In this document: positions 3,001 through 55,611 of the stretch, one piece after another | How positions within the stretch are numbered: the stretch's first letter is position 1 | How the letters are laid out: every line of letters begins with the position of its first letter | NCBI GenBank assembly: GCA_036229005.1 | Contig: JAZAMN010000070.1 | Coordinates: 22,267-86,266, forward strand | Length of the DNA: 64,000 nt | Direction: 5' to 3' | Source: Myxococcota bacterium | GTDB taxonomy: Bacteria > Myxococcota_A > UBA796 > CAJQPC01 | Translations under genes and position numbers: made by a program | Notes under the pieces: generated by a model | The model's database searches: none | Told to the model about the DNA's origin: nothing | Seen by the model: only the letters and a program-made list of their open reading frames with translations

Positions 3001-3488
3001 TCGAATACAGCTCCGCCGCCATCTACATCTGGGGCAAGGCCTACCTGCGGATGGCTGAGTACCTCTTCAACGCGCCCATGCCCACGGACCTCGCCAAGCT
3101 CGCTCAGGGCGACGAGGACCTGCTCTGGGAGCTCGAGGTCGCCTGGCAGGATGCACTCTCCGAGCAGGCCATTCCCCTGGAGGAGAAGGCCATCGCCCGC
3201 TTCGAGGCCAACCTGGCCAAGTCCAAGGCCGAGAAGCGCAGCTCCGTGTGGATCGACAAGTCCATCGAGGCCCTCAACGGCATCAACCCCTCCGAGTACC
3301 CCCTGGAGAAGGCCGAGCTCCGTGGCCAGGCCGAAGCCGAGGTCATCCCCTCCGCCGACCAGCCGGTCCAGCAGCCTGATCCAGAGGAGGAGGAGGCTCT
3401 CAAGTCGGACGACACGGAGGCTTCCACCACCCAGGACTCTGGTGAGAGTGCCTGGGGAGCCGCTCAGCCCGAGGGAGGTGACCAGTGA
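3..3488 (+). CDS. Large TPR protein, GltD/AgmU-like gliding-motility/envelope motor component (5'-truncated)
   Basis: Frame is open from the window start; >1150 aa of acidic TPR/YfiO-like repeats (e.g. YLDGTYYMMGFIY, ALFSAANAYE); lies upstream of GltE/GltF/ExbBD/GltG-like genes. Confidence 0.75.
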   Translation, partial: RLSGPVESEVDAYQAALERFQGRMSEFNADVRAIVDQMEFEERERLTLMYNDNIDELEASEQDLRELAIQRLEYFLQKYPDTEYTPHVMFRLAQLYVEVAYVDWLTAAQEYTELEMATPEDEQLFLPDPPRIDYGKALTLYEGIIAKHPGYEYLDGTYYMMGFIYFDSNSVQAEEWESEDLAREYFQKLVTEFPESPFAIDGNYILGDLHFANNEIEEAIPYFQAVVDRPPSENQRYDEGVYMLAWSHYKLSNYRKTLDLFTGLLDYSEESFKESGNESPLRPEAVRYAAITFSDLADKSVTLEDPDWREYSGEDMEGVSSLFDTMGLGQQQATPVEVTAAWFKLVGPRKYEADLYKALAEVLVEQARYEEAIATYEAIQTNWPNDPDNPTFQWEVTRLYLNLPIPDTAGQSQAQAVLNERYSEESAWWEANRNNPDAQATARRYIEQSLYNVAVEYHLRAQRTGSVEDYSRAADGYRDYLQKFPFADNYYEVQWYLADTLYASGRYEEAEGEYLQLLKAGGHPYMDGTQYQLFMVRLKRLEAAFGNVAVVPDDAVVDRVEKTQTGDDRNIYRVGELQQAFIEAADGMRAHEFKDQAYLDAATENMSAAAYIPAQIYFKHGDYAAARPRLEHIIETYCRTDEGAFAQDMMVKTYVNEGDLEKVVELTRLYIPMGCGETNGGQISGEFRNLQAGASYKLADKLYDAGDYLGAAQAFMEYRSTYDEYQKEALFSAANAYELGGKADEANKLFEQYINEYPDDENSAGLYFRIATNYAQILELDKSVTYYENLYRYFGPGSRYAQKNGGKADPNASAALYMAGFLRTGMGDHKGAAENFLRYAQQFPEAADAEQVRWLATDEWAKVGDREGRAAYQDYLKWSSQNGDPKPDHVIDAHYWLVQYYQRQGDRRREEAAWEELSKAYASLASAGRINKSSVAANRAAEAAFRDLEARYNDFADDDYPRKQDSETLKAFLLDEGSKLDEYIEIEKGALKIIETYGDFEYSSAAIYIWGKAYLRMAEYLFNAPMPTDLAKLAQGDEDLLWELEVAWQDALSEQAIPLEEKAIARFEANLAKSKAEKRSSVWIDKSIEALNGINPSEYPLEKAELRGQAEAEVIPSADQPVQQPDPEEEEALKSDDTEASTTQDSGESAWGAAQPEGGDQ

Positions 3489-4852
3489 TGCTCTTTTCCC
3501 TGCTCTTTGTCGGCTGTCCCAAGCCGGTGGAGGTCGAGCCCCCTGTCACCACCGTCGAGTCGGTGCAGGGGACCGAGACCCCCGATGCCTGGGGCGTTGA
3601 GACCCCGAGCTCTCGGGGCCCTGTGCTCTCACCGGAGCAGCAGTCCCGCGCCAGCGTCAACGAGGCCGTCGCCTTGCTGACCAACAAGGACAACGCCCCG
3701 CAGGTGGCCAAGATGTTGGAGGAGGTCACCCAGGCCGATCCCAACAACCTCTACGCGTGGTTCAACCTCGGGCTGGCCTACGAAGCCCAGGAGGACATGG
3801 TTCGCGCCGCGACGGCCTACAACCGGGTGCTCCAGATCGACGACAGCTACGGGCCTGCCTACGTCAACCTCGCCGCCATGACCTTGGCGCAGGGGAGGGC
3901 GGTCGAGGCCGAGCGCCAGTACCGCGAGGGGCTCAAGCGCGTCCCCGATGAGATGGACCTCTGGGCCGGCCTGGTCGCCTCGCTGCGCGCTCAGGGCCGC
4001 TACGCCGACGCCGAGAACGAGGCCCGCAAGGCGCTCCAGATCGACTCCAACGCCAAGCAGGTCTACGCCGTGCTCGGCATGGTCTACGTCGACACCGACC
4101 GCCTGGATCTCGCCAACTTCATCGTCCAGAAGGCCCTCACAACCGTCCAGGGGGGCAATGACGCCCCGCTCTATCTGGTGCTGGGCCGCGTCTACCAGAT
4201 GCAGGACAAGCCGCTGTCCGCCAGGGACAACTACCTCAAGGCCCTGGAGATGGACCCCAACCTGGTGGCCGCCCGGATCTGGTTGTCCGACTACTACCTG
4301 GACAACCGGAACTTCGAGGACACCGTCCCGCTCCTGGAGACCGCGCGCGAGCTGGATCCCGACGAGCCCGCGATCTACTACAACCTGGGCATCGCCTACC
4401 GCGGGGTCGGTCGCTACGAGGACTCCGCCAAGGCCTACCAGACCGCGCTCACGCTCAACCCTGAGAGCCCCGAGCCGCACCTGAACCTGGGGATCCTCTA
4501 CGGGGACTACCTCAAGCAGTACGACCTCGCGGTCGGCGAGTACGAGAAGTACAAGTCGGCCGGCGGTGACGCCACCTTGGCGGATGGCTACATCGAGGCC
4601 ACGCTCAAGGAGCAGAAGAAGGTCCAGATGCTCGAGGAGCGCCGCAAGAAGCTTGAGGCGCGCAAGAAGGCCCAGGAGGAGGCAGCCCAGAAGAAGGCCG
4701 CCGAGGAGGCCGCTGCAGCCCAGCAGCCCGCTGAGCCCGAGCCTGCACCCGAGCCCGAGCCTGCCCCCGAGCCCGAGCCTGCCCCCGAACCTGTCGAAGA
4801 GTCGGGTACAGAGGAAGAGGCCGCCCCCAGCCCCTGGGGTGGTGCCCAATGA
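3485..4852 (+). CDS. TPR lipoprotein, GltE/AglT-like
   Basis: Lipobox LFVGC; many TPRs (AWFNLGLAY, YYNLGIAY, HLNLGILY); coiled coil and PAPEPE tail; GTGA overlap with the upstream gene. Confidence 0.75.
   Translation: MMLFSLLFVGCPKPVEVEPPVTTVESVQGTETPDAWGVETPSSRGPVLSPEQQSRASVNEAVALLTNKDNAPQVAKMLEEVTQADPNNLYAWFNLGLAYEAQEDMVRAATAYNRVLQIDDSYGPAYVNLAAMTLAQGRAVEAERQYREGLKRVPDEMDLWAGLVASLRAQGRYADAENEARKALQIDSNAKQVYAVLGMVYVDTDRLDLANFIVQKALTTVQGGNDAPLYLVLGRVYQMQDKPLSARDNYLKALEMDPNLVAARIWLSDYYLDNRNFEDTVPLLETARELDPDEPAIYYNLGIAYRGVGRYEDSAKAYQTALTLNPESPEPHLNLGILYGDYLKQYDLAVGEYEKYKSAGGDATLADGYIEATLKEQKKVQMLEERRKKLEARKKAQEEAAQKKAAEEAAAAQQPAEPEPAPEPEPAPEPEPAPEPVEESGTEEEAAPSPWGGAQ
4733..4792 (+). repeat. 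18-bp coding tandem repeat (~3.3 copies) encoding EPEPAP
   Basis: GAGCCCGAGCCTGC(A/C)CCC three times, read directly. Confidence 0.9.
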
Positions 4853-4875
4853 GCCTGGAGAAGGAGAAGCGGAAA

Positions 4876-5115
4876 ATGCGCCGACAGATCATCGCTGCAA
4901 CCCTCTCGATCCTGGGTGCTGGCCTCATCGCCTCCAGCGCTGTGGCCCAATCCCAGGTCACCATGTTCGAAGCCGAGGAGATCGTCGGCGAGGTGCAGCT
5001 GCCCTCCGTCCAGATCTTCGTGACCCGGCAGAACCTCAACACCGACTACGACCTGGAGCTGGAGGAGTCCTTCCTGCCCAAGATCGTGGAGTCGGTGGAA
5101 GAGCGACCTTTCTGA
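4876..5115 (+). CDS. Small secreted protein, GltF/CglF-like
   Basis: SD AAGGAG before ATG 4876 (alternative start 4849); signal peptide ending AVA; FEAEEIVGEVQLP...ESFLPKIVESV resembles CglF; follows the GltE-like gene. Confidence 0.65.
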   Translation: MRRQIIAATLSILGAGLIASSAVAQSQVTMFEAEEIVGEVQLPSVQIFVTRQNLNTDYDLELEESFLPKIVESVEERPF

Positions 5116-5151
5116 GCGGCAAGGGCCCAGTGGGTCCTCGCATGCACCCAG

Positions 5152-12426: not shown

Positions 12427-12553
12427 AACCTCACCTTGGAGGTGTCGCCTGTCAAGTGACAGCTCCTCAGAGCCCTCAGGTATTCAAGGAGCTTGAAGGA
12501 TGACGTGTCAAGGGTTTTGCGCTACCATGGGCCCAATCTCTCTGGGACAGACC

Positions 12554-15757
<3,204 letters not shown>

Positions 15758-15766
15758 GCGGTGTCC

Positions 15767-15803
15767 AAAGGCTGACGGTTCTTTCGGTGGGCTGTCAGCT
15801 TTT
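15767..15803. terminator. Hairpin, possible terminator between ftsK and lolA
   Basis: AAAGGCTGACGGTT...GGCTGTCAGCTTTT. Confidence 0.5.
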
Positions 15804-15905
15804 GTCACGCCTTGAATGCCCCTGGCCCTCCTGGCGTCTTGGCACTTGGAACGATTGCAGCGCCCGCCTCTGCGGGCTACCCCCACGATTCCAGGGAGGA
15901 TTCCC

Positions 15906-16580
15906 GTGAAGTCTCTGTCCAGCATCGCCCTCATCGCGACCGTCGGCGTCGTCCTCTCGGCCCCAGTCCTGGCCCAGGAGGCCAAGGGCCCGGCGAACGT
16001 GCAGGAGCTCGTCGCCGCGGTCGAGGCCACCTACGCGGGCGTAGACTCTCTGAGCGCGGAGTTCACCCAGAGCACCAAGTCCTCCGCCTTCGAAGCCACC
16101 ATGTCCGGCACCGTGTCCATGGAGCGCCCCCGCAAGGTGCGTTGGGACACGACCGGTTCCGCCGGTGGCTCCTTGGTGGTGTCTGATGGCGCCAAGCTCT
16201 GGATGTACATGCCCGAGCAGAAGCAGGTCATGGTCTACCAGGACCTCTCCGGCACCGCGTCCGGCGCGATGGCCATGGACATCCTCTCCGACATGACCAA
16301 GCTGGACGAGACCTTCGCCACCGAGATGGGCGCGGGGGACGCAGACAGCTACACGGTCGTGCTCAAGCCCAAGGCGGGCGCCGAGTCCAACTACAGCACC
16401 ATCGTGCTGGACGTGACCAAGGACGCCTACGTCCTGGAGAAGGTCGTCCTGACCGACCTCTTTGGCACCGTCACCACCTACGACTTCAAGAACCTCAAGC
16501 TCAACCCCGAGCTGGACGACGCGACCTTCACCTTCAAGGCCCCCGAAGGGGTCACGGTGATGGACGCGAGCCAGATCTGA
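15906..16580 (+). CDS. lolA: Outer-membrane lipoprotein carrier LolA
   Basis: SD GGAGG and GTG; signal peptide; LSAEFTQ, RPRKVRW, VSDGAKLWMY, FTFKAPEGV; follows ftsK. Confidence 0.9.
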   Translation: MKSLSSIALIATVGVVLSAPVLAQEAKGPANVQELVAAVEATYAGVDSLSAEFTQSTKSSAFEATMSGTVSMERPRKVRWDTTGSAGGSLVVSDGAKLWMYMPEQKQVMVYQDLSGTASGAMAMDILSDMTKLDETFATEMGAGDADSYTVVLKPKAGAESNYSTIVLDVTKDAYVLEKVVLTDLFGTVTTYDFKNLKLNPELDDATFTFKAPEGVTVMDASQI

Positions 16581-16598
16581 GCCCTGGAGCTGACCTCC

Positions 16599-20081: not shown

Positions 20082-21089
20082 CTATGACCCCAGCCAGTCG
20101 TCAGGGTTCTGGGGAGTGTTGCGATAGCGCACCTCGAAGTGCACGCGCGGTCCCCGCTGGTCGACCACGCCGGTCTCGCCGACGACGCCGATGTAGTCCC
20201 CCTGCTTGAGCTGCTGGCCCACGCGCACCTTGGACTGCCCCAGGTGGGCGTAGACGGTGGTGAAGCCGTCGCCGTGGTCGACCACGATGGTCATGCCCAG
20301 GCCGGCGATGGGCTCGCCGCGGATGACGACGCCATCGGCCACCACGCGGACGGTGGAGTAGGCGGGCGCCAGCAGGTCCACGCCCCGGTTGCCGCCGCCA
20401 AAGGAGCTCAGGCGGGTCCCGCGGGTGACGGGGGAGGGGAGGCGCCCCTGCTGGTCGCGGAAGCGCAGCGTGGGGGTCGGCGCGGCGGCCTGGGGGATGG
20501 GCTCGGCGTGCAGGGTCTGGGAGGCGCGGACGGTGCGGGCGTCGGCCTGGCGCATCAGGGTCTCGGAGGCGCGCACCTGTTCGAGCAGAGCACGCCGCGC
20601 CTCGCGCTCGGCCAGGAGCTCCGACTCTTTCTCCTGGAACTGTGCCTGGAGGGTGGAGAGCTCAGCCTGGCGGGCCTCGACCTCCTTCACCGCCTCCCGG
20701 CGCTTGTCGAGCTCGCCCCGGAAGCTCTCGACCATGCTGTCGGTGTGGGAGAGCAGGGAGAGCAGGTAGCGGGAGCGGCGGCGCAGATCGGAGGGGTCTT
20801 CCGCGGAGAAGAGGATCCGGGCGAAGCCGCGGCGGTTGATCAGGTAGGCGAGGCGGATGATCTGCCGCACCCGCTCGCTGCGGCCGTCCACCACCTCCTG
20901 TGCCTTGGCCAGCTCCAGCTGGTGGGACTGGAGCTCACCGTCGAGGTCACCCTTCTGCGCTTCGATGCGGAGCATCTCGGCCTGCACATCCAGGAGCTGG
21001 CGCTCGGTGTCGGCGAGCTGGTCGAGCACGGTCCCGGCGCTCTGGGCGCGGGCGGGGGACGCGAGCAGGGCCAGCAGGAGGGCGATCAC
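20082..21089 (-). CDS. envC: Coiled-coil M23/LytM protein, EnvC-like murein hydrolase activator
   Basis: GTG start overlapping the ftsX stop; coiled coil; degenerate LytM (NRGVD, YAHL, VHFEVR). Confidence 0.8.
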   Translation of the reverse strand: MIALLLALLASPARAQSAGTVLDQLADTERQLLDVQAEMLRIEAQKGDLDGELQSHQLELAKAQEVVDGRSERVRQIIRLAYLINRRGFARILFSAEDPSDLRRRSRYLLSLLSHTDSMVESFRGELDKRREAVKEVEARQAELSTLQAQFQEKESELLAEREARRALLEQVRASETLMRQADARTVRASQTLHAEPIPQAAAPTPTLRFRDQQGRLPSPVTRGTRLSSFGGGNRGVDLLAPAYSTVRVVADGVVIRGEPIAGLGMTIVVDHGDGFTTVYAHLGQSKVRVGQQLKQGDYIGVVGETGVVDQRGPRVHFEVRYRNTPQNPDDWLGS

Positions 21090-24678: not shown

Positions 24679-24765
24679 GCCCAGCCTGTCCTCGCTGGTG
24701 TTTTCCAGTCCCTGACAGCTTGAGTGTGCGCGCCGTTGGAGAGTGGTGGGCAGGAGGGTTCCCAA

Positions 24766-25443
24766 ATGCACCTCAGCCTCTTTCTTTCCCTGGTGGGTTG
24801 CCGCGGCAACCTGGAGATCAACTCCGCCGAAGACCTGATCAACGCCTGCGAGGAGCTCAAGCAGGAAGACGAGACCGTGAACATGACCTTCCTGGGCCAC
24901 AGCGATGGCTGCGCCTGGGGGGAGGACGGCAACGGTGACCGAACGCAGGGCGTGATCAGCGCGCGCCGCGAGGACTACCAGTCCATGGAGCTGCCCGAGG
25001 GCGGCGTGGCCTGTGACCTGCAGTTCGACTTCTACGGGCTGAACCCGGATCTGGAGCAGGAGATCACCTACGACGACCACTTCATGCTCACCTTCAACGA
25101 CGTGATCCTGGCGAGCAGCTCCATCGAGATGATGGAGGACCTGGAGCAGAGCGAGGAGGGCTGGTACGTCTACGACTGGGAGCAGATCCGGGGCACAACC
25201 CTCGAGATGCAGGCCGAGACCTACTGTCTGGGCAGTGACTCCGACTGCGAGGTCCCCGCGACCGAGACCCCGGGCCCCATCCGTCTGAGCTTCTCCGGCG
25301 AGCTGGTCCAGCAGCTTGGCTACCTGGGTGTGGAGCAGGGGCGCTACGACTTCGGCTTCATCACCTTCGGCGACAACGACGACTCGGACTGCTACCACGA
25401 GGCCTTCACGTTCAAGGTGGGTGTGCCGGTGGTCTACCCCTGA
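24766..25443 (+). CDS. Acidic, Cys-rich hypothetical lipoprotein
   Basis: SD GGAGG; MHLSLFLSLVGC lipobox; six further Cys. Confidence 0.7.
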   Translation: MHLSLFLSLVGCRGNLEINSAEDLINACEELKQEDETVNMTFLGHSDGCAWGEDGNGDRTQGVISARREDYQSMELPEGGVACDLQFDFYGLNPDLEQEITYDDHFMLTFNDVILASSSIEMMEDLEQSEEGWYVYDWEQIRGTTLEMQAETYCLGSDSDCEVPATETPGPIRLSFSGELVQQLGYLGVEQGRYDFGFITFGDNDDSDCYHEAFTFKVGVPVVYP

Positions 25444-26057: not shown

Positions 26058-27530
26058 TCACTCCCCGGGGACCGCCGGGAAGAAGCTGAGGTCGTCGACG
26101 GCTGCGAGGCGCTCGCTCTCGGCGCCGCCGATGATGAGCACGCCGTAGCGGAGGTCCGAGGCCACGCTCGGGTTGATCACGGCGTTGGGGGTCCCACCGG
26201 AGCTGTCGCTGGCGGTGCACCCGTCCAGCACGGCGAAGCTCTGGTCCGTGGGGTCGAAGCGCTCGACGCAGGAGATCTGGTCGCCGCCGGGGACCGGGAG
26301 CGTGTTGGGCTGGAGCTCCGCGGCGCCTCCGATCACCAGGGCGCTCCCGTCGGGGAGGGGGACGGTCTTGTGGCGGGCGCGCGCGATGTTCAAGGGCCCT
26401 GCCTCGGTCCAGGCGTCCTCGGCGACGTCGTAGAGCCAGGCGTCCGTCTCGGCCTCACCATTGACGCTGGCGCCGCCAGTCGCCAGGACCAGGCCGTCGG
26501 TCAGTTGGGTGAGCTGGAGGGCACCGCGGGGCGCGGGGAGCGGGGCTGCGTCGCTGAGGTTGCCGGAGAAGTCCAGGATGAAGCACTCGTCGGTGAACGC
26601 CTCATCGCCCAGGTCCATGCCGCCGCAGATCAGGATGCCCTCCAGGCCCAGCGGCGCGGCGCTCGGGTTGAAGGTGCCGAGCTGCGCCGCAGGCTCGATG
26701 CTGTCATCGGCGGCCCGGTAGATCTCGATCTGCCGGATGGCGTTCGACGCGCTGATGCCGCTGATGAGCGCGACGTCCCCGTTGTGGAAGGGGACGGCCT
26801 GGTGGTCCACGCGGGCCTCCTCCAGGTCCAGCAGCTCCGAGAAGGTCCCGGTGCTGGGGTCAAAGAGCACGGCCTGGGCGAGCGCGTCGTTCTCCATGTA
26901 GTCCAGGCTGGGGCCGCCACCCGCGATCAGCACGCGCCCGTCCTGCAGCAGGGTGGCGGTGGAGCCGGCCCAGGTGTCGGTGCCCGTGCCGTTGTCGGGC
27001 ATGGTGTAGTCCTGGGCGGTCAGCGTGAGCGCGTCGGGCCCGGTCAGGTCGATCGCCCGCACCAGGTTGCTGCCCTCTGTGCTGCCCGCGACGCCGTAGT
27101 CCATGCGCTTGGTGTCACCGCCAAAGACCCAGAACACGCCATCGATCGCGACGACCGCGCCGCCGACGAGCGGGGTGTCCATGGTCGGGAACCAGCCGAC
27201 CTGCTCCGTGGAGGCCACCAGCACCGGGGCCTCCAGCTTGCCGGTCTGGAGGGTGATGGGCTGGCTCCGACCGAACGCGGACAGAGCCGTGCCGCTGTAC
27301 CCCTTCACCGCGATCGTGCCGCCCTCCAGCGCGCCCATCTCACCCAGCGCGGGGCTGCCGGAGAGCTCGTCGAGCGTGTACGCCTCTTCGCTGCCGTCTG
27401 CGTGCTCGACCACCAGGTCGATGCGGGTGAGCCCATCGAAGGGGAGCTGGTTCTCCGGGACGATCGGGACGAGCTGGAGGTTGTAGTCTGCGCCCTCGCC
27501 ACACCCCAGCATCAGCATCAGCAGGCCCAA
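26058..27530 (-). CDS. Kelch-repeat (beta-propeller) lipoprotein
   Basis: SD GGAGG and TTG start; MGLLMLMLGC; kelch motifs ATLLQDGRVLIAGG, LTDGLVLATGG, LPDGSALVIGG. Confidence 0.75.
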   Translation of the reverse strand: MGLLMLMLGCGEGADYNLQLVPIVPENQLPFDGLTRIDLVVEHADGSEEAYTLDELSGSPALGEMGALEGGTIAVKGYSGTALSAFGRSQPITLQTGKLEAPVLVASTEQVGWFPTMDTPLVGGAVVAIDGVFWVFGGDTKRMDYGVAGSTEGSNLVRAIDLTGPDALTLTAQDYTMPDNGTGTDTWAGSTATLLQDGRVLIAGGGPSLDYMENDALAQAVLFDPSTGTFSELLDLEEARVDHQAVPFHNGDVALISGISASNAIRQIEIYRAADDSIEPAAQLGTFNPSAAPLGLEGILICGGMDLGDEAFTDECFILDFSGNLSDAAPLPAPRGALQLTQLTDGLVLATGGASVNGEAETDAWLYDVAEDAWTEAGPLNIARARHKTVPLPDGSALVIGGAAELQPNTLPVPGGDQISCVERFDPTDQSFAVLDGCTASDSSGGTPNAVINPSVASDLRYGVLIIGGAESERLAAVDDLSFFPAVPGE

Positions 27531-27687: not shown

Positions 27688-28431
27688 ATGGAGATGCAGC
27701 TCCAGAGTGCCCTGCTGTCCGAGCTCCCCGGCCTGCGGCACGGCTTCACGACCCGACACGGCGGCGTCTCCACCGGTCCCCTGTCCACCCTGAACCTGGC
27801 GCTCCGACAGGGGCAGGATCCCGAGGGGCTGGTGGAGAACTGGACCCGCGTGCTGCACCCCCTGGACCCTGCGGCCCTCGCCATCGCCGATCAAGTGCAC
27901 GCCGACGAGGTCATCCGTGTACAGACCGGCGCCGGACCGCTGGACACCGTCGGCGCCGCGGACGCCCTGATCACCGACCGCCCCGGGGTCCCCATTGCGG
28001 TCCGGACGGCGGACTGCGTGCCCATCCTGCTGGCTGCTCCGGGGGCTGTCGCAGCAGTCCACGCTGGCTGGCGCGGCACCACAGCTCCAATCATCCCGCC
28101 CGCGGTCGCCGCCCTCTGCGAGCTGGCCGGATGTCCCCCCTCGGAGCTCCGGGCGGCCATCGGCCCCTGCATCTCCCTGGCCAGCTACGAGGTCGGCCCA
28201 GAGGTGGTCCGCGCCCTCACCAACCTGGACCTGCACGTCTGCGTGGATCGCAGCGCGACCGGCCGCACCCACGTTGACCTCGCTCGGGCCAACCGACTGC
28301 TCCTGCATCGGGTCGGCGTCCAGCGGGTGGAGGTGTTGGGCCACTGCACCCTGCGCGACGACCGCTTCTACTCCCACCGCGGACAAGGCCCGAGCACCGG
28401 ACGGCAGGCGGCCTGGATCAGCCTGTGTTGA
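27688..28431 (+). CDS. pgeF: Peptidoglycan editing factor PgeF/YfiH (purine nucleoside phosphorylase-like)
   Basis: HGFTTRHGG, QVH, TADCVPILL, HAGWRG, IGPCI, FYSHR. Confidence 0.93.
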   Translation: MEMQLQSALLSELPGLRHGFTTRHGGVSTGPLSTLNLALRQGQDPEGLVENWTRVLHPLDPAALAIADQVHADEVIRVQTGAGPLDTVGAADALITDRPGVPIAVRTADCVPILLAAPGAVAAVHAGWRGTTAPIIPPAVAALCELAGCPPSELRAAIGPCISLASYEVGPEVVRALTNLDLHVCVDRSATGRTHVDLARANRLLLHRVGVQRVEVLGHCTLRDDRFYSHRGQGPSTGRQAAWISLC

Positions 28432-29453
28432 TGCTCCTGGCGCTGGCCTGCAATGAGCCCCAGGTGGACCCACTCAGGGCGGCGGTGCTCTCCTTCCAGG
28501 CGGGCAAGGAAGCGCTCTCGCAGGGGGACCCCCAGGCGGCGGCGGAGGCCTTCGCCCAGGCCCAGGCGCTGGATCCCCAGTCGGCGGAGCTCGCGCTGTG
28601 GCACGGGCAGGCGCTGGCGGAAGCAGGGGATCTGCCAGGTGCGATCGCGCAGGCGGACCGGGCTGTGAGCCTCCGTCCGGGGTTGGTGGAGGGCTGGTAC
28701 AATCGGGCGTGCTGGAAGGCGCGCGCCGGGGATCTGGAGGGCGCGGCCTCGGACCTGGCGCAGGCCCTGCGTTCACCGGAGCTGGACCCCCTCTCGGTCG
28801 CTGTGGACCCGGATCTGCAGGCGCTGCGCGAGCACCCCGAGTTCGCCTCCGTGATGCCCTCTGCGGAGCTCCCTCTGGCTGCGGAGATCGACCCCGGGCC
28901 GCACTTCCTGGGCGCCGGGCTCGAGCTGCGCCTGACCCTGGACAGGGGAGGGGAGCTGAGCCCCAGCCTGTCGTCCGCTTCAGAGCCCTCCGCTCTGTTG
29001 AGGCCGACCTCGGTGATCCAGGACCTGGATCCCAACCGTCCGGGCGCGCTGGGCCTGCGCGTACGCTTCAAGGCTCTGGGCCCCGGCGAGGTCACGCTGG
29101 GACCAATCACCGCCCAGGCCGGCGCGCTCCAGGGCCATTCCGAGGCGCTCGGGGTCCAGCTCCTGGCCCCCCCGGACACGCCGCTCCCTACCCAGGTGGC
29201 CTGGGCGCCCATCTGGAGCTTGCCTGCGTCCCTGCTCACCGGTGAGCCTGGAGCCCGGGCCGTGCAGGGCTGGTGTCTGGTGGAGCTGCTGCCTGGAGAT
29301 CGGGCGCGCTGGGAGGCCACCGGGGTCGTCGAGGTCGAGCTCCGGGAGGGGACCCGGGTCCTCCGGCGGGGACTGCTGGGCCAGAGCGAAGCCGGCGCGT
29401 CCGTGGTGATCGAGCGCGCCGGTCAGACGACCTGGTCAGGGAGCTGCCCCTAG
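28425..29453 (+). CDS. TPR-containing lipoprotein with a C-terminal beta-sandwich
   Basis: MLMLLALAC; TPR (WYNRACWKAR); GEVTLGPIT resembles a BatD/Ig-like strand. Confidence 0.65.
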   Translation: MLMLLALACNEPQVDPLRAAVLSFQAGKEALSQGDPQAAAEAFAQAQALDPQSAELALWHGQALAEAGDLPGAIAQADRAVSLRPGLVEGWYNRACWKARAGDLEGAASDLAQALRSPELDPLSVAVDPDLQALREHPEFASVMPSAELPLAAEIDPGPHFLGAGLELRLTLDRGGELSPSLSSASEPSALLRPTSVIQDLDPNRPGALGLRVRFKALGPGEVTLGPITAQAGALQGHSEALGVQLLAPPDTPLPTQVAWAPIWSLPASLLTGEPGARAVQGWCLVELLPGDRARWEATGVVEVELREGTRVLRRGLLGQSEAGASVVIERAGQTTWSGSCP

Positions 29454-32400: not shown

Positions 32401-32610
32401 GGTGTCACCGTCTTCGGCGACGGTCAGGGCGTCTGCGATCAGGGCGTAGCCTTCGCTCCGCCCGCCCTCGATCAGGATGCATCCCTCCTCGTACCAGGCG
32501 TCCCCGGTGTCGTCGGGGGTGGTGCCGGTGTCGTCGTTGTTCTGGCCGTCCTTGTTGCAGCCGGCGAACACGAAGAGACCAGCGAGGAGGATCAGCGGGC
32601 GCTGGGACAT
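29467..32610 (-). CDS. Large surface lipoprotein with right-handed beta-helix repeats and Cys/Asp metal-binding (DxDGDG...DCND) repeats
   Basis: MSQRPLILLAGLFVFAGC; many PbH1-like repeats; DADGDGY..DCNDFD..YPGA..EDLNCDG type motif twice. Confidence 0.8.
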   Translation of the reverse strand: MSQRPLILLAGLFVFAGCNKDGQNNDDTGTTPDDTGDAWYEEGCILIEGGRSEGYALIADALTVAEDGDTLDLSACESMDQAAEVGKSVTIKGPGAELLTWTAPTNEAAVKVAGASDVRIEGFTLLSERNGIELTSASNVSIDGVVFDSIANTALKSTDSTGVSVSNATFTAPGYGAIEVSGGSITLSDSQITDALGFAIHAIEGAQATATNNTITGVSYTELDENGSVSDGFAFWGENADFVTENNVMTNNFVHVLVDTGDVVMTGDALAGGLYGVYAVFGSADLEGVTVTDAVTVGALLVSTSDDISVVDSSFTTDPAIAFDSYDDPEAWSGGGLIAETDGAVTIDNVTVSGWNAQGVAVGAREDSVTADISGLTVTDCGRYGVRLLSGDFVVTDTWVEQLRLADNPELVNVGGSLSVGYGVQAFDADVDWSGGGIVDSAVTSATIQNSNWKMEGAEVSNGGWDGGGTLGIGLWGLSSTLDISNTTFSKSPNYGGIANYFGTLIADGLVFEDNTWEYSYDSNQYQFYGTGGNATTDSTTFTSTTDLVAGGLMVGDLLYMYSTYEYLEVASITSGTEVELVSPPATAVTDSNFAVYRPVRAYAAWYSVDVVSNGAISTEISNSTFTTGSDGIQIIGGDSDVTLSNLSFTDYNDSVLYIYRSDTDPAYGDIEVSDLSVSNLGYTALRCSGATVEVDGLSVSGTMQRTSQTRYEAADGTEISSSTYNSSGVAAIYNQGCDLSLDEVTVSGADYHSLLSTGGSLELNDVTVSEGSSKGSSSYAAVDVSWGDESPVLLASGLEISSTGSSAMSIKGNGQTGSVALSGVSIDDAAGVGLTLMDMGQASISGLSVSGSSSHGVQNSGDLTLSGAILSGNAGYGFWSGQDADGDGYTVADGDCNDFDSGAYPGASESTYSYEDLNCDGLSGSGTWTTSDIDGDGYGVSDGDCDEYNAARNPGGTDTPGIDGDCDGVAGALSGSVVLSGGSYTGNTLGGVYLGGFDADVDSNTITGNSGYGMVCDASVSFDSCDSNDLSGNGSGTTDGCSACEI

Positions 32611-37804: not shown

Positions 37805-38825
37805 CCAGGTCCGCGCGGGCGTCGAAGCGCACCGTGTTCGAGCCGGTCTGCACCAGGTAGGGGTGCTCCAGTTGCGTGGGGAACACGTAGCTGGCGTCCG
37901 CCACGGTCTCGAGCTTGAGGTACTCAAAGATGCGCCAGTAGATGCCGATGCCGGCGATGGCGCGGCTCTGCTCCCCCATGGTGGACAGAGTGCCCTGGGA
38001 CGTGGACAGCACCGAGGGCAGGTACAGCCCGCTGGGGAGGTCGCCCCAGGACTGGTAGGCGTAGCCCAGGCGGAAGTCCACCGCGAACTCGGCGTGGGTG
38101 ACCGGGTCTGCGAAGGTGTGTACCTCGATGCCGCTCATGACGGTCAACGAGTCGGGGTTGATGACCGTCGCCGAGACCTCGGCGCCGGTGGCGTCGTTGA
38201 GGATGACGTCGGTGTCGCCCTGGCGCAGGTAGGTGGCCTCGATCCAGGGCTGGCTCTGGCCGAGCTTCTTGGAGAAGCCGCTGCGGAGTCGGAGGGCTGA
38301 GGAGCCGGTGCCCGCGCCGCGCTCGCCGCCTGAGGTGTCGTAGAAGTGCGTGCCGTCCGGGGTGCGGAAGCTCACGTCCAGAAGCCAGTTTGCGCGGTTT
38401 CCTCGCTCGGGGAGCTGCTCCCAGGAGAAGGGGGCGACCTGCGCGCCCAGCCAGACGCCGGAGAGGCCGGAGCCGGTCACCGGGTCGGTGCTCAGATCGC
38501 TGCCGGTGCGCATCGAGCCCTTGCCCAGAGTGGGGTCGAAGGCCATGGACTGGGCGTCCGTCCAGCCCACGGACTGCTGGACCGAGATGGGGAACTCCAG
38601 GGTCACGGCGGTCATGGGGGCCACGCCGAAGCTGCCGCCCACGTGGATGCGGTGATCCTGGGTGGTCAGTCGCCCGACGGCGACCTCTTCTCCGCCCACA
38701 GGCTCGATCATCGAGCCGGTCTGGTAGTTCATCCGGTAGCCCACCCAGGCGTCACCGCGCAGGAAGGGGGGCAGGTCGGTGGGTTCAGCGGCCTGGGCGG
38801 TCGCCATCAGCAGGGTGAGCAGCAT
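37788..38825 (-). CDS. Secreted protein, probable outer-membrane beta-barrel
   Basis: Short signal peptide MLLTLLMATAQA; alternating beta-strand pattern; C-terminal FDARADLVILFR. Confidence 0.6.
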   Translation of the reverse strand: MLLTLLMATAQAAEPTDLPPFLRGDAWVGYRMNYQTGSMIEPVGGEEVAVGRLTTQDHRIHVGGSFGVAPMTAVTLEFPISVQQSVGWTDAQSMAFDPTLGKGSMRTGSDLSTDPVTGSGLSGVWLGAQVAPFSWEQLPERGNRANWLLDVSFRTPDGTHFYDTSGGERGAGTGSSALRLRSGFSKKLGQSQPWIEATYLRQGDTDVILNDATGAEVSATVINPDSLTVMSGIEVHTFADPVTHAEFAVDFRLGYAYQSWGDLPSGLYLPSVLSTSQGTLSTMGEQSRAIAGIGIYWRIFEYLKLETVADASYVFPTQLEHPYLVQTGSNTVRFDARADLVILFR

Positions 38826-40367: not shown

Positions 40368-40928
40368 ATGCGCAAGCTCGCTACCGCCCTCGTCCTGGCC
40401 GCCTCTGGTGTGGCCCTCTTCGCCTCCGCGCCGGCCGTGGACGCTGCAGACAACAAGGCGGCCGACTTCACCCTCCGGGACATCCAGAACCAGGAGGTCA
40501 GCCTCAAGGACCAGGAAGGCAAGGTCACGCTGGTCTCCTTCTGGGCCACCTGGTGCGCCCCCTGCATCGCTGAGCTCCACCACGTCCAGAAGCTCTACGC
40601 CGAATACGAGGACGAGGGCTTCCAGGTGCTGGCGGTGTCCATCGACGATGCCCGCTCCGCGTCCAAGGTCAAGCCGACCGTCAAGTCCAAGGGCTGGGGC
40701 TTCCCGGTGCTGCTGGACAAGCAGACCACCGTGGTCAATCAGTACTACCCCTCCAAGGCCATCCCCTACAGCGAGCTGCTCTCGCCCACCGGCGAGAGCA
40801 TCTGGAAGCACGCCAGCTACACCGCTGGAGATGAGTGCGAGCTGGCGCACAAGGTCATCGAGGCCCTGACCGCGCTCAACGGGAAGGCCCCTGAGAAGGA
40901 CATGGCCGCCGAACTCTGCAACGAGTAG
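40368..40928 (+). CDS. TlpA-family thiol-disulfide oxidoreductase
   Basis: Signal peptide; DFTLRD, FWATWCAPC, AVSID; SD GGAG. Confidence 0.92.
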   Translation: MRKLATALVLAASGVALFASAPAVDAADNKAADFTLRDIQNQEVSLKDQEGKVTLVSFWATWCAPCIAELHHVQKLYAEYEDEGFQVLAVSIDDARSASKVKPTVKSKGWGFPVLLDKQTTVVNQYYPSKAIPYSELLSPTGESIWKHASYTAGDECELAHKVIEALTALNGKAPEKDMAAELCNE

Positions 40929-40941
40929 CCAGGGAAGCGCT

Positions 40942-42624
40942 GTGATCCTCTCGCTCTGTCTGACCTGGGTGGCCCCGGCTGCCGCCCAGGAGGCCTCGTC
41001 CAGCCCCTTGTCCCAGGTCAACGTGACGGGGAGCTTCGACAGCGAGGGGCGCTACTACTTCTCGGACCGAGTGCTCTCGGACTTCCCCGATGAGAGCGGC
41101 GTCTTCAACTACATGGAGCTCGTGAGCCGCAGCAACCTGCTTGCCGACGCGGACGCCTACCAGCTCGGGATCCAGCTCGACCACGTGTCGATGGTCAACG
41201 CCTGGTACTACCTGGACGACGTCCGCACCTACGAGCTCGATCTGCTGGAGGCGGGCGTGATCTCCCCCTGGGAGATGACCCTGGTGAACCTCGAGAAGGC
41301 CTGGTTCACCGCCGATCTGGGGCCGGTCGAGGTGACTGTCGGTGACTCCTACATGAGCGTGGGGCGCGGGCTGGCCCTCAACCTCATCAAGAACACCCAG
41401 ATCGACGTCGACACCTCGCTGCGGGGCATCAAGGCGGAGTCCTCGCTGGGGGCCTGGGACCTCTCGGTGGTCACCGGCCTGACCAACCAGCAGCAGATCA
41501 TGCAGGACAACCCCAACCGCCTGATCCGCGCCAACCGGTCCAACCTGGTCAACGCGGTCCGGGTGGATCGCTACGGGCTCGGCCCGGTGAATGTGGGCGC
41601 GCACGGCGTGGTCTACAACTTCACCGAGGCGGTGGAGGGACCGGTTGAGGGCTTCCAGCGCTACGGGGAGCTGGGCGATCCCGATGCCCTCGTCGGTGGA
41701 GTGGGTGCCGAGGCGTTCCTGGGGCCCGTGGATCTCTTCGTTGAGGGCGACTGGTTCCAGTACCGGGATCCCGTCCTCTTTGGTGGAGAGGAGGTGGAGC
41801 CGGGCTACGCGGTCTACGGCACGGCCGCGTTCTATCCGGGGCGCTTCGCGGTGCTGGTCGAGGGCAAGCGCTACAAGGACACCGAGCGCCTGAACACCCT
41901 GACCTCCCTGCAGGGCTACGAGATCGCGACCGGGCCCTCGCTGGAGTACGAGCGCGTGATCACCGAGGACTCCTCGGCGGCCGTGAACTCCAACGACATC
42001 TACGGCGGCCGGGTGCGCGCGGACTTCATGGCCAAGCCGGGCGTGTTCATCCCCTACATCGACGTGGGGGTGTTCCGGGACCAGGAGCTGGGCGGCCTGC
42101 ACTTCAACCGCAGCCCCGAGACCATCGTGCACCCCGTGGTGGGCATGGATCTGCAGGGCGACCACGTCACGGCGCTGGTCAACGCGGGCTACCGCACCGA
42201 CATCCGCGATGAGCACGGGCGGGACCAGCTTGTGCACCTGGACGCGGCGCTCTCCTTCCCGCTGCCCGGCGAGCTGCACGGCGACGCCACCTGGGACATC
42301 TACCACTTCTGGTGGGGCGAGAACGCCAACCAGCAGCACGACTTCTACACCAGCACCCTGGCCCTGGCCGCGCACCACCCCAGCGGCGTGTCGGCCATCC
42401 TGTACAACGACTTCACCAACGATCCGCTGGCGCAGTCGCAGGCCAAGGGCAACATCACCGACGACATCTACATGGCCGGTGAGCTGCAGTACATGCCCAA
42501 CGACCGCACGCAGATCCGCGTGTTCTATGGCGCCTACAAGGCCGGCATCCGCTGCGCCGGTGGACAGTGCCGCCTGCTGCCTGCGTTCGAGGGCGCCCGG
42601 GTCGCAGTGACCACCAGCTTCTGA
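40942..42624 (+). CDS. Outer-membrane beta-barrel, DUF6029-like
   Basis: Signal peptide; VGDSYMSVGRGLALN, DTSLRG; C-terminal GIRCAGGQCRLLPAFEGARVAVTTSF. Confidence 0.7.
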   Translation: MILSLCLTWVAPAAAQEASSSPLSQVNVTGSFDSEGRYYFSDRVLSDFPDESGVFNYMELVSRSNLLADADAYQLGIQLDHVSMVNAWYYLDDVRTYELDLLEAGVISPWEMTLVNLEKAWFTADLGPVEVTVGDSYMSVGRGLALNLIKNTQIDVDTSLRGIKAESSLGAWDLSVVTGLTNQQQIMQDNPNRLIRANRSNLVNAVRVDRYGLGPVNVGAHGVVYNFTEAVEGPVEGFQRYGELGDPDALVGGVGAEAFLGPVDLFVEGDWFQYRDPVLFGGEEVEPGYAVYGTAAFYPGRFAVLVEGKRYKDTERLNTLTSLQGYEIATGPSLEYERVITEDSSAAVNSNDIYGGRVRADFMAKPGVFIPYIDVGVFRDQELGGLHFNRSPETIVHPVVGMDLQGDHVTALVNAGYRTDIRDEHGRDQLVHLDAALSFPLPGELHGDATWDIYHFWWGENANQQHDFYTSTLALAAHHPSGVSAILYNDFTNDPLAQSQAKGNITDDIYMAGELQYMPNDRTQIRVFYGAYKAGIRCAGGQCRLLPAFEGARVAVTTSF

Positions 42625-43702: not shown

Positions 43703-44695
43703 ATGTTGTTCCTCACCTCCCTTCTGCTCGCCTGCACGCCGGACAATGAGATCCAGCGCCGCAGCCACACGGACGTGTTCGCCCAGGAGCCCCTGTCCGA
43801 GGTGGACATCCTGTGGGTCATCGACGACTCCAACTCGATGGCCGAGGAGCAGCTCCGCGTGGCGGATGGGTTCGAGGCCTTCATCCAGAACCTCGCGGAG
43901 ACCAACATCGACTTCCACGTGGGGGTGATCTCCACGGACATGGACATCGACAACCCCAACCGCGGGGTGCTCCTGGGCGACCCGCACTACCTGACCATCG
44001 ACACGCCGAATTACGTGAACAAGTTCGCCAATCGGGTGCAGGTGGGGACCGAGGGCTCGGACAAGGAGAAGGGGATCTCCGCCAGCGTCGCAGCGCTCTC
44101 CGAGCCGCTGGTGTCCGGCGTCAACGAGGGCTTCCTGCGCGAGGACGCCCACCTGAGCATCATCTATGTCAGCGACGAGGACGACTGCTCCGACAACGAC
44201 GCGCTCGCCGGGGAGTCCGCGGAGGCCTGCTACTCCCAGGAGGGCAAGCTGGTCGCGGTGAAGGACCTGATCTACGAGCTCAAGGGCACCAAGGATCCCG
44301 ACCGCCGGGTGCTCGCCAGCGCGATCGTCGGCCCCGAGGCCGGCCAGGGCTGCGCGGACTCCTGGCCCGGACACCGCTACCAGGGCGTCTCCGAGCAGCT
44401 CGGCGGGCAGGTCCACAACATCTGTGAGGGCGACTTCTCCGCCATCATGGAGGAGCTGGGCCTGGCGGTCTCCGAGCTCAACCGCAGCTTCCAGCTCTCC
44501 TACACGCCCGTGCTGGAGACCATGGAGGTCGTGGTCGAGAACGAGCTGATCGACCAGGACGACGTGGACGGCTGGTCCTACGACGACCAGGCCAGCCTGC
44601 TGGTGTTCGCCGGGGACTACGTGCCGCCGCGCGGTGCGCAGATCCAGGTCACCTACGAGGTCGCCGGGGCCGCCGCGGATCCCGAGGACGAGTAG
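43703..44695 (+). CDS. vWA-domain lipoprotein
   Basis: MLFLTSLLLAC; MIDAS-like DILWVIDDSNSM; VISTD; FLREDAHLSIIYVSDEDDCS. Confidence 0.8.
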   Translation: MLFLTSLLLACTPDNEIQRRSHTDVFAQEPLSEVDILWVIDDSNSMAEEQLRVADGFEAFIQNLAETNIDFHVGVISTDMDIDNPNRGVLLGDPHYLTIDTPNYVNKFANRVQVGTEGSDKEKGISASVAALSEPLVSGVNEGFLREDAHLSIIYVSDEDDCSDNDALAGESAEACYSQEGKLVAVKDLIYELKGTKDPDRRVLASAIVGPEAGQGCADSWPGHRYQGVSEQLGGQVHNICEGDFSAIMEELGLAVSELNRSFQLSYTPVLETMEVVVENELIDQDDVDGWSYDDQASLLVFAGDYVPPRGAQIQVTYEVAGAAADPEDE

Positions 44696-45847: not shown

Positions 45848-46770
45848 TGGGCGCTCCCGCCGAGCTGGGTGTAGAGGCTGTCGGCCAGGGCTTGGATGTC
45901 CTGGGCGTGCAGGTCGCGCTGGCCGCGGAAGGGGAGCTCGGCGCGGGGGCAGGGGAGGGCGCTGAGGCGCTCGCGGGCTTGCTCCTGGCGGGCGATGCGG
46001 GCCATCTGACGGTCGGTGAGCGCGACGGCGGCCTGGAGCGCGGGGCTGTCCAGGTGGGGGCGGGCGGCCTTCCACTGGGCCCAGGTGGCTGGGCTGGCAT
46101 GCACCTCGTTGAGGACGCAGAGCTGGACCTGGCGCTGGTAGCTGCCCAGGCGGCTGTGCAGATCCAGGGTCTCGTTGACGGGCATCTGGCCGCTCAAGGT
46201 CACGAGCACGACGCCGGTGCGGACGGGGTCCTCCCACATCTCGCGCACCAGCCTGGCGTTGTCGTGGAAGGGGCCGGCGCCGGTGAGCTCCATCATGGAG
46301 GCGGGCGCGGAGAGCATGGTGAGCCCGTGGCCGGTGGCCGGCGCGTCCAGGATGATGAGGTCCCAGTCGGGGCGGCCCAGGGTGCGGCTGCGCTCCAGGT
46401 CCATGACCTTGCCGAGCTGGATGAGCTCGTGCAGGCCCGGGACGGCGTCCATGAAGGGGCCCATGATGCGGTTGCGGAACACCATCTTGTAGAGCGCCCG
46501 CACCTTGATGACGCCGACGATGTACTCCTCGAGCGCCTTCTCGCTGGTGATGCTCAGGTGGTGCAGGCTGCCCATCAGGGGCTGAACGCTGTAGTCCAGG
46601 GCCGGGCGGCCGAAGATCCCCGGCAGGCGCTGGGCCCCGTGGGTCTCGCAGACCAGCACCGTCTTGCCCATGCGGGCCGCGGCCAGGCCCAGGGTGAGGC
46701 TCAGGGTGGACTTGCCCACGCCTCCCTTGCCGGTGACCAGCAGCACGCGCTTGTCCAGGAGGCTCTTCAC
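45844..46770 (-). CDS. ArsA/Get3-family ATPase (Rv3679/BagA-like)
   Basis: TGKGGVGKST, PGLHEL, DAPATGHG. Confidence 0.88.
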   Translation of the reverse strand: MKSLLDKRVLLVTGKGGVGKSTLSLTLGLAAARMGKTVLVCETHGAQRLPGIFGRPALDYSVQPLMGSLHHLSITSEKALEEYIVGVIKVRALYKMVFRNRIMGPFMDAVPGLHELIQLGKVMDLERSRTLGRPDWDLIILDAPATGHGLTMLSAPASMMELTGAGPFHDNARLVREMWEDPVRTGVVLVTLSGQMPVNETLDLHSRLGSYQRQVQLCVLNEVHASPATWAQWKAARPHLDSPALQAAVALTDRQMARIARQEQARERLSALPCPRAELPFRGQRDLHAQDIQALADSLYTQLGGSAQ

Positions 46771-53527: not shown

Positions 53528-53539
53528 GGGGCCGGTTAG

Positions 53540-53571: not shown

Positions 53572-53596
53572 GGGGTCAGTAACCCTGGAGGCCGCC

Positions 53597-54187
53597 CTGG
53601 CCAGACCCCGCGAGACCACTGACGAAGAGATCCTGGAGGCCGCCCGCGAGGTGTTCCTGGAGCACGGGGCTGGCGTCGCGACCGCCGTGGTGGCCCGGCG
53701 TCTGGGCGTGAGCGCAGCGGCGCTCTTCCACCGCTTTGGGAGCAAGCGCAACCTGGTGTTGCGGGCGCTGACCCCCCAGCTCCCGGACTTCGAGGCGATC
53801 GAGGCCGGCCCGGACGCCCGGCCCATCCCAGAGCAGCTCCGGGAGATCGGCCTGGAGGTGAGCCAGCGGCTGCGCAAGATGGGGCCCCGAATGGCGGCGC
53901 TGCGGTCGGCGGGGCTCAGCCCAAAGGACTGCTTCGACCACTTTGAGGAGCCGCCCCCGCTGCGGCTGCACAAGAGCCTGACGCGCTGGTTCCAGCTCGC
54001 GATCGAGCAGGGGAGGGTGCGCCCCGGGGACGCCGGGTGCTATGCCATGGCCTTCCTGGGGGGCCTGAACAGCCGACACTTCTTCACCCACTTCCTGCAG
54101 GTGGAGCCTGAGCTCCCGCAGGAGGGATTCGTCGACAGCATCGTCGACACCATCTGCGCAGGGTGCCTGCCGCCGGAGGACCGCTGA
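53597..54187 (+). CDS. TetR/AcrR family regulator (probable CTG start)
   Basis: ARPRETTDEEILEAAREVF...VARRLGVSAAALFHRFGSKRNL HTH. Confidence 0.85.
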   Translation: MARPRETTDEEILEAAREVFLEHGAGVATAVVARRLGVSAAALFHRFGSKRNLVLRALTPQLPDFEAIEAGPDARPIPEQLREIGLEVSQRLRKMGPRMAALRSAGLSPKDCFDHFEEPPPLRLHKSLTRWFQLAIEQGRVRPGDAGCYAMAFLGGLNSRHFFTHFLQVEPELPQEGFVDSIVDTICAGCLPPEDR

Positions 54188-55611
54188 TGGGCGTGAGCCT
54201 GCTACTCCTTTCCCTCGCGACGGCGCTCGCCGGCTACGGGGACCGCATCGTCATCATCGAAGGCGGGGAGGCCTTCTCGGCCGGCCCCTCCCAGGAGGTC
54301 AGCCAGGCCCCCTGGTGGCAGAGCTTCGGTGAGCCCACCCTGCAGGGCCTCGTGGAGTCCGGCCTCTCCGACAGCCCCGCGCTGGCCTCCGGGCAGGCGC
54401 GCGTGGACGCGGCCCAGGCTCAGTCCTGGGCGGTGCTCTCGCCGGTGCTCCCGCAGGTCAGCGTGGACTTCGGGCACCAGATCAAGCCCTGCCCGGAGAT
54501 CGGCTTCGCGATCTGTGACTTCACCGTCCCCACCGACGAGAACGGCATCCCCACCCAGGAGGTCCCGGACACCTACGCGCAGGGCAGCCTGTACCTGAAC
54601 GCGGGGATGAACCTGGATCTCTTCGGGGCCTCCTACAACAGCAACAAGGCCTCCCGCCTGGAGGCCGCGGCCGCCGGTGGCGACGTGGAGGCGCAGGCCC
54701 TGATGCTCTCCGTTCAGGTCGGCGGGGCCTACCTGGACTGGCTCACCGCCGCCGAGCAGCTCGCCCTGGTCGAGCGCCAGCTCCGGCTCAACCAGGAGCT
54801 GCTGGAGATCGTGGAGCTGAACTACCAGGCCAGCACCTCCACCGCGGTGGACCTGCTCCAGCAGCGGCAGTCCCTGGCCCAGGTGCAGACCTCGCTGCCC
54901 TCGGCGCAGGCCCAGCTCCGCCTCCAGGAGCAGCAGCTCGCGGTGCTCACGGGGCAGGACCCCTCCCAGCGCATGGATCTGTTGGTGCAGCCACTGCCGG
55001 AGCTGCCGGCCAGCCCCGCGCTCGGCGCTCCACGGGATCTGTGGGAGAACCGCCCGGATCTGCGCGCCGAGATGGCCCGCCTGGAGGCCGCCCAGCGCCG
55101 CGAGAAGGCCAGCGTGCGCGGCGCGCTGCCCACCGTGGGCGTCAGCGGCCAGACCGGCTGGTCCTACCAGGACATCTACGACATGGAGAGCCAGCAGCAG
55201 TGGACCGTGGGCGCGAGCGTCTCGGTGCCCATCCTCTCCGGAGGCGCCAACGCCTCCGCGGTGTCGGCAGCCCGCGCCAGCACGGACGCGGCCGCGCACA
55301 CCGCGAACAACGCCTTCCTCAGCGCTGTCGCCGAGGTCGAAGGGGCCATCGCCCAGGAGCAGGCCGCCGTGGCCGCCTGGCAGGCCGCCCAGACCCAGGC
55401 CGAGGCCGCTGAGCTCGCGTACCAGGCCGCCCTGACCCAGTACCAGAACGGGCACGGCAGCTACCTGCAGCTCTCCCAGCTGCTCGCCACCCACTTCCAG
55501 GCGGAGCTCTCTGAGCTCTCCGCACACCGCAGCGCCCTGGGCGCGCGCCTCACCCTCCACCAGGCCCTCGGTGGGTCCTGGACCGCCACCTGGACGGAGT
55601 CCGCAGAATGA
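54187..55611 (+). CDS. TolC-family outer-membrane efflux protein
   Basis: PWWQSFGEPTL, NRPDLRAE, LHQALGGSW. Confidence 0.9.
   Translation: MGVSLLLLSLATALAGYGDRIVIIEGGEAFSAGPSQEVSQAPWWQSFGEPTLQGLVESGLSDSPALASGQARVDAAQAQSWAVLSPVLPQVSVDFGHQIKPCPEIGFAICDFTVPTDENGIPTQEVPDTYAQGSLYLNAGMNLDLFGASYNSNKASRLEAAAAGGDVEAQALMLSVQVGGAYLDWLTAAEQLALVERQLRLNQELLEIVELNYQASTSTAVDLLQQRQSLAQVQTSLPSAQAQLRLQEQQLAVLTGQDPSQRMDLLVQPLPELPASPALGAPRDLWENRPDLRAEMARLEAAQRREKASVRGALPTVGVSGQTGWSYQDIYDMESQQQWTVGASVSVPILSGGANASAVSAARASTDAAAHTANNAFLSAVAEVEGAIAQEQAAVAAWQAAQTQAEAAELAYQAALTQYQNGHGSYLQLSQLLATHFQAELSELSAHRSALGARLTLHQALGGSWTATWTESAE

Follow-up and report, generated by a model that had tools for sequence, protein, structure and literature searches.

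The window analyzed here is a 64-kb stretch of DNA from a Myxococcota bacterium (G000:C70:22267-86266; source genome G000, 6.4 Mb, 70% GC, 94% complete), and our subject is a set of very short, uncharged protein leaders encoded within it. Five predicted lipoproteins in the window have no Lys or Arg ahead of the lipobox Cys. The first leader (3485..3517, plus strand; MMLFSLLFVGC, 11 residues, Cys11) opens a 455–amino acid TPR protein, with a GTG start that overlaps the upstream stop (GTGA) and a GGAGG ribosome site. The second (24766..24801, plus; 12 residues, Cys12) belongs to a 225–amino acid protein without a Pfam match and has an AGGAGG site; a GTG farther upstream, at 24724, offers only an acidic, non-basic extension. 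The third (27501..27530, minus; MGLLMLMLGC, 10 residues, Cys10) precedes a Kelch-repeat protein and has a TTG start with a GGAGG site; more distant in-frame starts are present, the open reading frame running from 27884. The fourth (28425..28451, plus; MLMLLALAC, nine residues, Cys9) begins a TPR protein at the first start past an in-frame stop and overlaps the end of the upstream gene. The fifth (43703..43735, plus; MLFLTSLLLAC, 11 residues, Cys11) belongs to a 330–amino acid protein, some relatives of which are named VWA domain-containing.

Four further leaders without a basic n-region are of the kind cut by signal peptidase I (SPase I). They comprise a 12-residue uncharged leader ending in A-Q-A on a 345–amino acid protein without a Pfam match (38790..38825, minus), a 15-residue uncharged leader on a DUF6029 protein (40942..40986, plus), a 15-residue leader on an M23 peptidase whose only Arg, at residue 14, lies in the c-region (21045..21089, minus; the GTG overlaps the upstream stop, GTGA), and a 15-residue uncharged leader on a TolC-family outer-membrane efflux protein encoded close to an AcrB-family gene (54187..54231, plus). 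The last has an ATG that overlaps the upstream stop (TGATG) and a ribosome site of the GGAGG/AGGAGG type, as at 3485, 24766, and 27530. A Pfam scan of all nine proteins returned TPR, Kelch, M23, DUF6029, and TolC-family matches, with three of the nine unmatched. An earlier note on this DNA had described these nine leaders, and on re-reading, their sequences, Cys positions, and lack of charge are as it reported. It had also argued that five of them (3485, 28425, 38825, 40942, and 43703) cannot be lengthened; each indeed starts at the first ATG, GTG, or TTG past an in-frame stop. Strands left unstated there (38825, 21089, and 32610) are all minus. Two canonical leaders in the window provide a contrast: a lipoprotein leader with Arg4 and Cys18 on a beta-helix protein (32557..32610, minus), and a leader with Arg-Lys at residues 2-3 on a thioredoxin-like protein (40368..40445, end approximate, plus).

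The short leaders are real and genome-wide. Genes and starts in G000 were taken from a purpose-written caller, whose start model is blind to signal features and which probably misplaces some starts. Among the 5,313 genes called, 798 encode predicted lipoproteins, and 594 of these have the lipobox Cys at residue 7-13, about half the textbook length; Lys and Arg are absent from 590 of the 594 leaders. About 11% of the genome's genes thus break the textbook rule for lipoprotein signals. Normal leaders coexist with them, as had been proposed: 204 lipoboxes have the Cys at 14-26, 147 of them with Lys or Arg (a further 22 with the Cys at 27-44 were kept out of both classes). Cys positions are bimodal, with 11, 123, 141, 157, 82, 57, and 23 genes at residues 7 to 13, and the sharp lower edge at Cys8 provides a natural measure of the minimal signal. 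Unfiltered occurrences of Cys at residues 8-12 number 808, far above the 329 expected from the rate at residues 30-60. Only 139 of the 798 lipoboxes combine a Cys at 15-35 with Lys or Arg within the first seven residues, and rule-based predictors would miss most of the set.

A typical short leader consists of Met, five to seven mostly Leu residues, Ala, and Cys. Leaders with Cys8 have a large hydrophobic second residue, and the longer ones gain Thr, Ser, or Pro. Leu makes up 58-69% of positions -2 to -6 and acidic residues are absent, a composition that is partly imposed by the filter and with which the unfiltered Cys peak concurs. The core is more hydrophobic than that of the long class (mean Kyte-Doolittle value, 2.62 versus 2.36), residue -1 is Ala, Gly, or Ser (also part of the filter), and the tether after the Cys resembles that of the long class. 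Basic residues past the Cys were ruled out as a substitute n-region, the net charge over the first 10 residues being -1.3. The short leaders, which lack Arg, contain no twin-arginine translocation (Tat) motif; a Tat-like motif occurs in 19 other genes. Leaders with Lys or Arg are slightly more common in the top decile of ribosomal protein–like codon use (13% versus 7%, P = 0.005), a small effect. Both short and long leaders are found within 13 of 51 paralog families, a mixture that favors a single tolerant pathway over a separate export code.

We find that most of the short starts are correctly placed. An independent start signal, whether coupling, a ribosome site, a -10 box at -12 or -13, or a stop cap, supports 504 of the 594, and in 104 an in-frame stop caps the leader at Cys14 or below whatever start codon is used. 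Ribosome sites precede 63% of short starts, 70% of long starts, and 53% of other genes, and 22% of short starts overlap an upstream stop. A ribosome site is missing from 205 short genes; in 49 of these a TAnnnT box lies at -12 or -13, which we infer to be the spacing of leaderless transcripts. Across the genome, this box lies at exactly -12 in 198, and at -13 in 52, of the 1,358 ATG genes without a ribosome site, which suggests that leaderless transcription is common in G000. An upstream ATG, GTG, or TTG that would give a canonical leader is available to 93 of the 594 short genes, with a ribosome site in 11 and a better upstream site in 4.

A profile anchored on the Cys of 701 motifs, which is independent of the caller's start choices, gives the same picture. 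ATG frequency is 2.4-4.1% at positions 3-7 and 14-17% at positions 8-10, the step falling between position 7 (2.4%) and position 8 (15%). Upstream of residue 11, GC content at third codon positions drops from about 89% to about 65%, and coding bias collapses. At 115 internal control motifs, ATG stays between 0 and 7.8% at every position, with neither the ATG jump nor the loss of coding bias. Among 120 relatives of the protein at 43703, publicly available gene calls are likewise bimodal: 36 have the Cys at 8-12 (3 with Lys or Arg), 42 at 15-17 (36 with Lys or Arg), and 3 lack such a Cys. Upstream or non-standard starts were thus rejected for most genes, given the stop-capped leaders and the rarity of better upstream ribosome sites.

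Several characteristics of the proteins behind these leaders argue for export. Mature regions of the short class match those of the long class in Asp (9.5 versus 10.6%) and Arg (4.1 versus 3.4%), and other proteins differ from both (6.0 and 7.3%, respectively). A later membrane helix was found in only 6 of 569 short-class proteins. CXXCH motifs, typical of c-type heme, which is attached outside the cytoplasm, occur in 34 of the 594 short-leader proteins, with two or more in 16 and four or more in 5. Leaders free of Lys and Arg were also seen by eye in all five Omp85 genes (including BamA), 8 of 13 OEP-matching proteins, and 12 of 21 OmpA-domain proteins; by family, BamA/Omp85, TolC-family, OmpA-domain, and M23 proteins are all substrates expected outside the cytoplasm. 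Because Omp85 proteins such as BamA and multi-CXXCH proteins use such leaders, export of the short-leader proteins is very likely.

The BamA ATG in G000 sits directly after an in-frame stop. Read by eye, the BamA leader lacks an n-region in G000, G007, and G011, has an Arg in G005, and is unreadable in G006 and G013; in all 16 class-mates outside the order, Arg or Lys lies ahead of the hydrophobic stretch. The TIGR03303 match of BamA (G000:C52:398577-400991; loci L348-L361) falls into two pieces in genomes of the order, with a break near model positions 256-263, and is mostly in one piece in class-mates, which suggests an order-specific insertion in the POTRA region. BamD, usually a lipoprotein, was dropped as a test case: its leader (G000:C7:59629-60267; loci L187-L216) is of SPase I type and has no lipobox Cys in G000 nor, by eye, in nearly all of the 30 class loci, G035 being an exception.

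Canonical Sec/SPase I signals span about 18-30 residues, and the Cys of a canonical lipoprotein lies at about residue 15-35 (PROSITE PS51257). The lipobox leaders resemble canonical Sec/signal peptidase II substrates of the Escherichia coli Lpp type in their hydrophobic stretch, small residue at -1, Cys, and acidic low-complexity tether, and G000 encodes Lgt, LspA, Lnt, and LolA. They differ in having no basic n-region, a Cys at 7-13, and Leu at -2, and in being the majority class. The SPase I–type leaders likewise have a hydrophobic core followed by A-x-A, and LepB-family genes are present; they differ in lacking the N region and in a predicted cleavage near residue 11-16. Measured against the DOLOP definition of a lipoprotein signal (quoted in PMC6930937) and the SPase I signal of a basic N, a hydrophobic H, and an A-x-A C region (PMC12445088), we regard both as a variant of the Sec signal, because the leaders depart from canonical charge and length yet appear to work like Sec signals. 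No paper describing short uncharged leaders was found in a literature search that most subscription journals lay beyond, and the accessible part of the SignalP 6 paper contains nothing on such leaders (PMC9287161).

The trait has a restricted distribution. We calculated a DNA index, defined as the share of lipobox patterns preceded by an ATG at a distance of 3-15 bases, which includes an out-of-frame background. Its median is 0.40 in nine genomes of the source family (0.36-0.64), 0.28 in 22 other genomes of the order (0.10-0.50), 0.16 in 11 other genomes of the class (0.06-0.22), and 0.16 in 179 other genomes of the phylum (maximum, 0.30). Direct reading of 80-140 kb per genome gave a similar gradient: short leaders account for 36 of 52 lipoboxes in the four family genomes sampled, for 11 of 43 in seven further genomes of the order (6 of 11 in G033), for 0 of 26 (with three ties) in five class-mates of similar GC outside the order, and for 3 of 25 at distant SecA loci. 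These small samples are noisy, since G023 gave 0 of 3 short lipoboxes despite an index of 0.50. The short-leader trait appears to have arisen within the order and to reach its greatest strength in the source family. In a quick tree, a sequence titled Oligoflexia bacterium sits inside the order's SecA clade.

Two substitutions in the translocase distinguish members of the order from class-mates. SecY position 187 is Ala or Ser in 14 of 14 aligned members of the order, and Ile in all 16 class-mates and in E. coli. A pattern search, in which a miss does not prove Ile, found a small residue there in 28 of 31 genomes of the order, 0 of 11 others of the class, and 4 of 179 others of the phylum, all four being Thr; Ala or Ser itself thus occurs in 28 of 31 genomes of the order versus 0 of 190 others. 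Ile187 belongs to the SecY isoleucine ring, which consists of six Ile residues (PMC8082313) and whose positions are tied to prlA suppressors (PMC2171872). Ring substitutions often yield super-active translocons (PMC13537251), and I187M scored +0.47 log2 (P = 0.054; PMC13537251 supplement). In SecA, residue 372 is Tyr in 13 of 13 rows from the order and Leu or Val in 17 of 17 class-mates. This L372Y change adjoins the known suppressor site 373, where the bulkier residues of A373V/I/F give Prl phenotypes; L372 goes unmentioned in the accessible text of that preprint (bioRxiv 2021.08.31.458331). The acidic groove of SecA (E289/D293/E294) was uninformative as an adaptation, the stretch being shorter here, in class-mates, and in the majority of the outgroup.

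The reading that we favor, with moderate confidence, is that bare hydrophobic-core leaders rely on the standard Sec, Lgt, LspA, and LepB machinery, probably helped by a relaxed SecY channel. About three-quarters of the predicted lipoproteins in G000, and many of its secreted proteins, start with a core of six to eight mostly Leu residues and no basic n-region. That these proteins cross the inner membrane is highly probable, because BamA, TolC-family, and multi-CXXCH proteins could not otherwise work. Lgt would then probably diacylglycerylate the Cys and LspA cut off the stub; the leader would not cross the membrane but lie within its periplasmic half. Less secure, and plausible at best, is a third step in which SecY I187A/S, perhaps together with SecA L372Y, would relax signal proofreading in the manner of a natural prl mutation. 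If so, individual genes could lose their n-regions one after another, and targeting would depend on the Leu-rich core and the mature domain; mature domains carry targeting signals of their own (PMC5412566).

The parallel is with E. coli prlA (SecY) and prlD (SecA) mutants, in which changes likewise fall in the SecY Ile ring or at SecA A373, and which export clients with a defective or absent signal peptide (PMC2171872, PMC13537251, bioRxiv 2021.08.31.458331). Unlike those alleles, the changes seen here are natural, fixed across an order, and known from sequence alone, and neither I187A/S nor L372Y is among the alleles described in the accessible parts of these sources. In its boldest form, which we offer tentatively and rate as rather doubtful, a fixed prl-type translocase throughout the order let some families shrink most of their signals to a seven-residue core, the true minimum being Met, six residues, and Cys. 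If this is true, the n-region and membrane-spanning length would be dispensable for Sec, Lgt, and LspA. The genome offers hundreds of ready test substrates, short and long paralog pairs, and two named substitutions with which to probe the role of the n-region and the way in which Lgt and LspA act on leaders that cannot reach across the membrane, and a published cell-free SecYEG assay is suited to a direct test (PMC13537251).

Several observations weigh against the favored reading. G035 has both I187S and L372Y yet an index of 0.11, and G025 has L372Y with an index of 0.10. Because members of the order with normal leaders share both changes, these would be at most permissive. In addition, 23 SecY columns differ between family and class, so that a chance match to one of six ring positions is not unlikely, and kin genomes are not independent in this comparison. 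Other prl sites examined in SecY (67, 68, 69, 274, 278, and 408) are unchanged in the family, our scan flagged no change at SecA 134, 373, 484, or 488, and I187A/S is absent from the accessible part of the variant table of PMC13537251. The strict lipobox [LVI][ASTVI][GAS]C fits only 94 of the 594 short leaders (96 of 204 long ones), chiefly owing to Leu at -2 (69%); the usual form is L-L-A-C. The screen for SPase I–type candidates, 288 of 515 of which lack Lys and Arg (median cleavage position, 14 versus 23; 45 of the 288 ending in Phe), is a rough heuristic in which false positives are evident. Finally, the Lnt start looks truncated, lying too far downstream, and shows that the caller makes errors. 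We hypothesize that SecY I187A/S and SecA L372Y are a candidate adaptation, correlative and at most permissive.

Among the alternatives, the one that survives best, although we think it unlikely, is that no translocon change was needed: a Leu-rich core would suffice for the signal recognition particle (SRP) or SecA, any bacterium could use one, and this lineage drifted. Ffh, FtsY, and SRP RNA are intact, so that loss of SRP was rejected as an explanation; the short core is the more hydrophobic one; and within the order, the trait and the SecY change do not go together. SecB, whose absence would also fit this account, was not found in any of the 31 class genomes searched and is for that reason uninformative. 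However, 0 of 190 genomes outside the order exceed an index of 0.30, so drift without the order's background seems rare, and a seven-residue core is shorter than those that SRP usually binds.

A second alternative, raised in the earlier note, is that the short class has Lgt or LspA paralogs of its own for processing, and this we consider improbable. G000 has single copies of secA, ffh, ftsY, SRP RNA, secY, full-length lnt, and lolA, so that neither secA nor ffh is duplicated. It also has two deformylases (so that deformylase loss was rejected), a LepB with weaker S26 matches, and three CDP-alcohol phosphatidyltransferases. Duplication of lgt and lspA is present, with four lgt and two lspA genes. 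Two of the Lgt paralogs are divergent (C21:84375-85220 and C52:307944-308822), with HDHxG in place of the CCxG of the other two. All four retain equivalents of Arg143 and Arg239, and both LspA proteins retain equivalents of Asp123 and Asp141, residues that we take to be catalytic; none of the four keeps Lgt His103, a residue also replaced in most class-mates. A cluster at G000:C8:68311-71829 comprises lspA, a membrane-protein gene, a second lspA, and lgt, and tandem lspA-lgt clusters recur throughout the class. However, class-mates with normal leaders carry one to seven lgt genes, a similar lspA-lgt cluster, and the same catalytic residues. The duplication is thus not lineage-specific and was rejected as a cause. 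Moreover, the indices of G006, G008, and G013, all of the source family, reach 0.36-0.38 with a single LspA match each. Of the proposed non-canonical code with adapted machinery, then, the lineage-specific leaders stand, a special Lgt/LspA set is not supported, and the SecY/SecA candidates are only correlative.

Slightly less probable still is export with the short leader retained as an uncleaved anchor, or with the Cys acylated by another enzyme. A helix of 7-12 residues is too short to span the bilayer, and the lipobox is atypical at -2. On the other hand, the residue at -1 is Ala, Gly, or Ser (by the filter), the tether resembles that of the long class, paralogs exchange leader types around the same Cys, and beta-barrel and TolC proteins whose leaders end in A-x-A must be released. 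The least probable account is an artefact, with true starts upstream at non-standard codons or internal Met, Val, or Leu codons picked by the caller: some starts are probably miscalled, and 196 of the 594 leaders could be extended to canonical form if CTG, ATT, ATC, and ATA are also allowed, but only 10 of these have a better upstream ribosome site, 104 leaders are stop-capped, public gene calls display the same class, and a companion script applying the same lipobox rule to class-mates of GC 0.63-0.74 found the 0 of 26 reported above, which led us to reject a GC or caller effect.

The window also contains lolA (15906..16580, plus), the sole LolA match in the genome, so that the outer-membrane lipoprotein carrier is present; its own leader carries a Lys. 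It lies within 12500-17939, between ftsK and a gene that from its sequence appearance resembles rimO. Two adjoining ArsA-type-ATPase-like genes occupy 44732-46770 on the minus strand, one of which was scanned and matched Pfam ArsA_ATPase; in other organisms, ArsA-type ATPases are linked to the targeting of membrane proteins. Relatives of one window protein carry the source labels Myxococcota, Deltaproteobacteria, Alphaproteobacteria, and Pseudomonadota bacterium.

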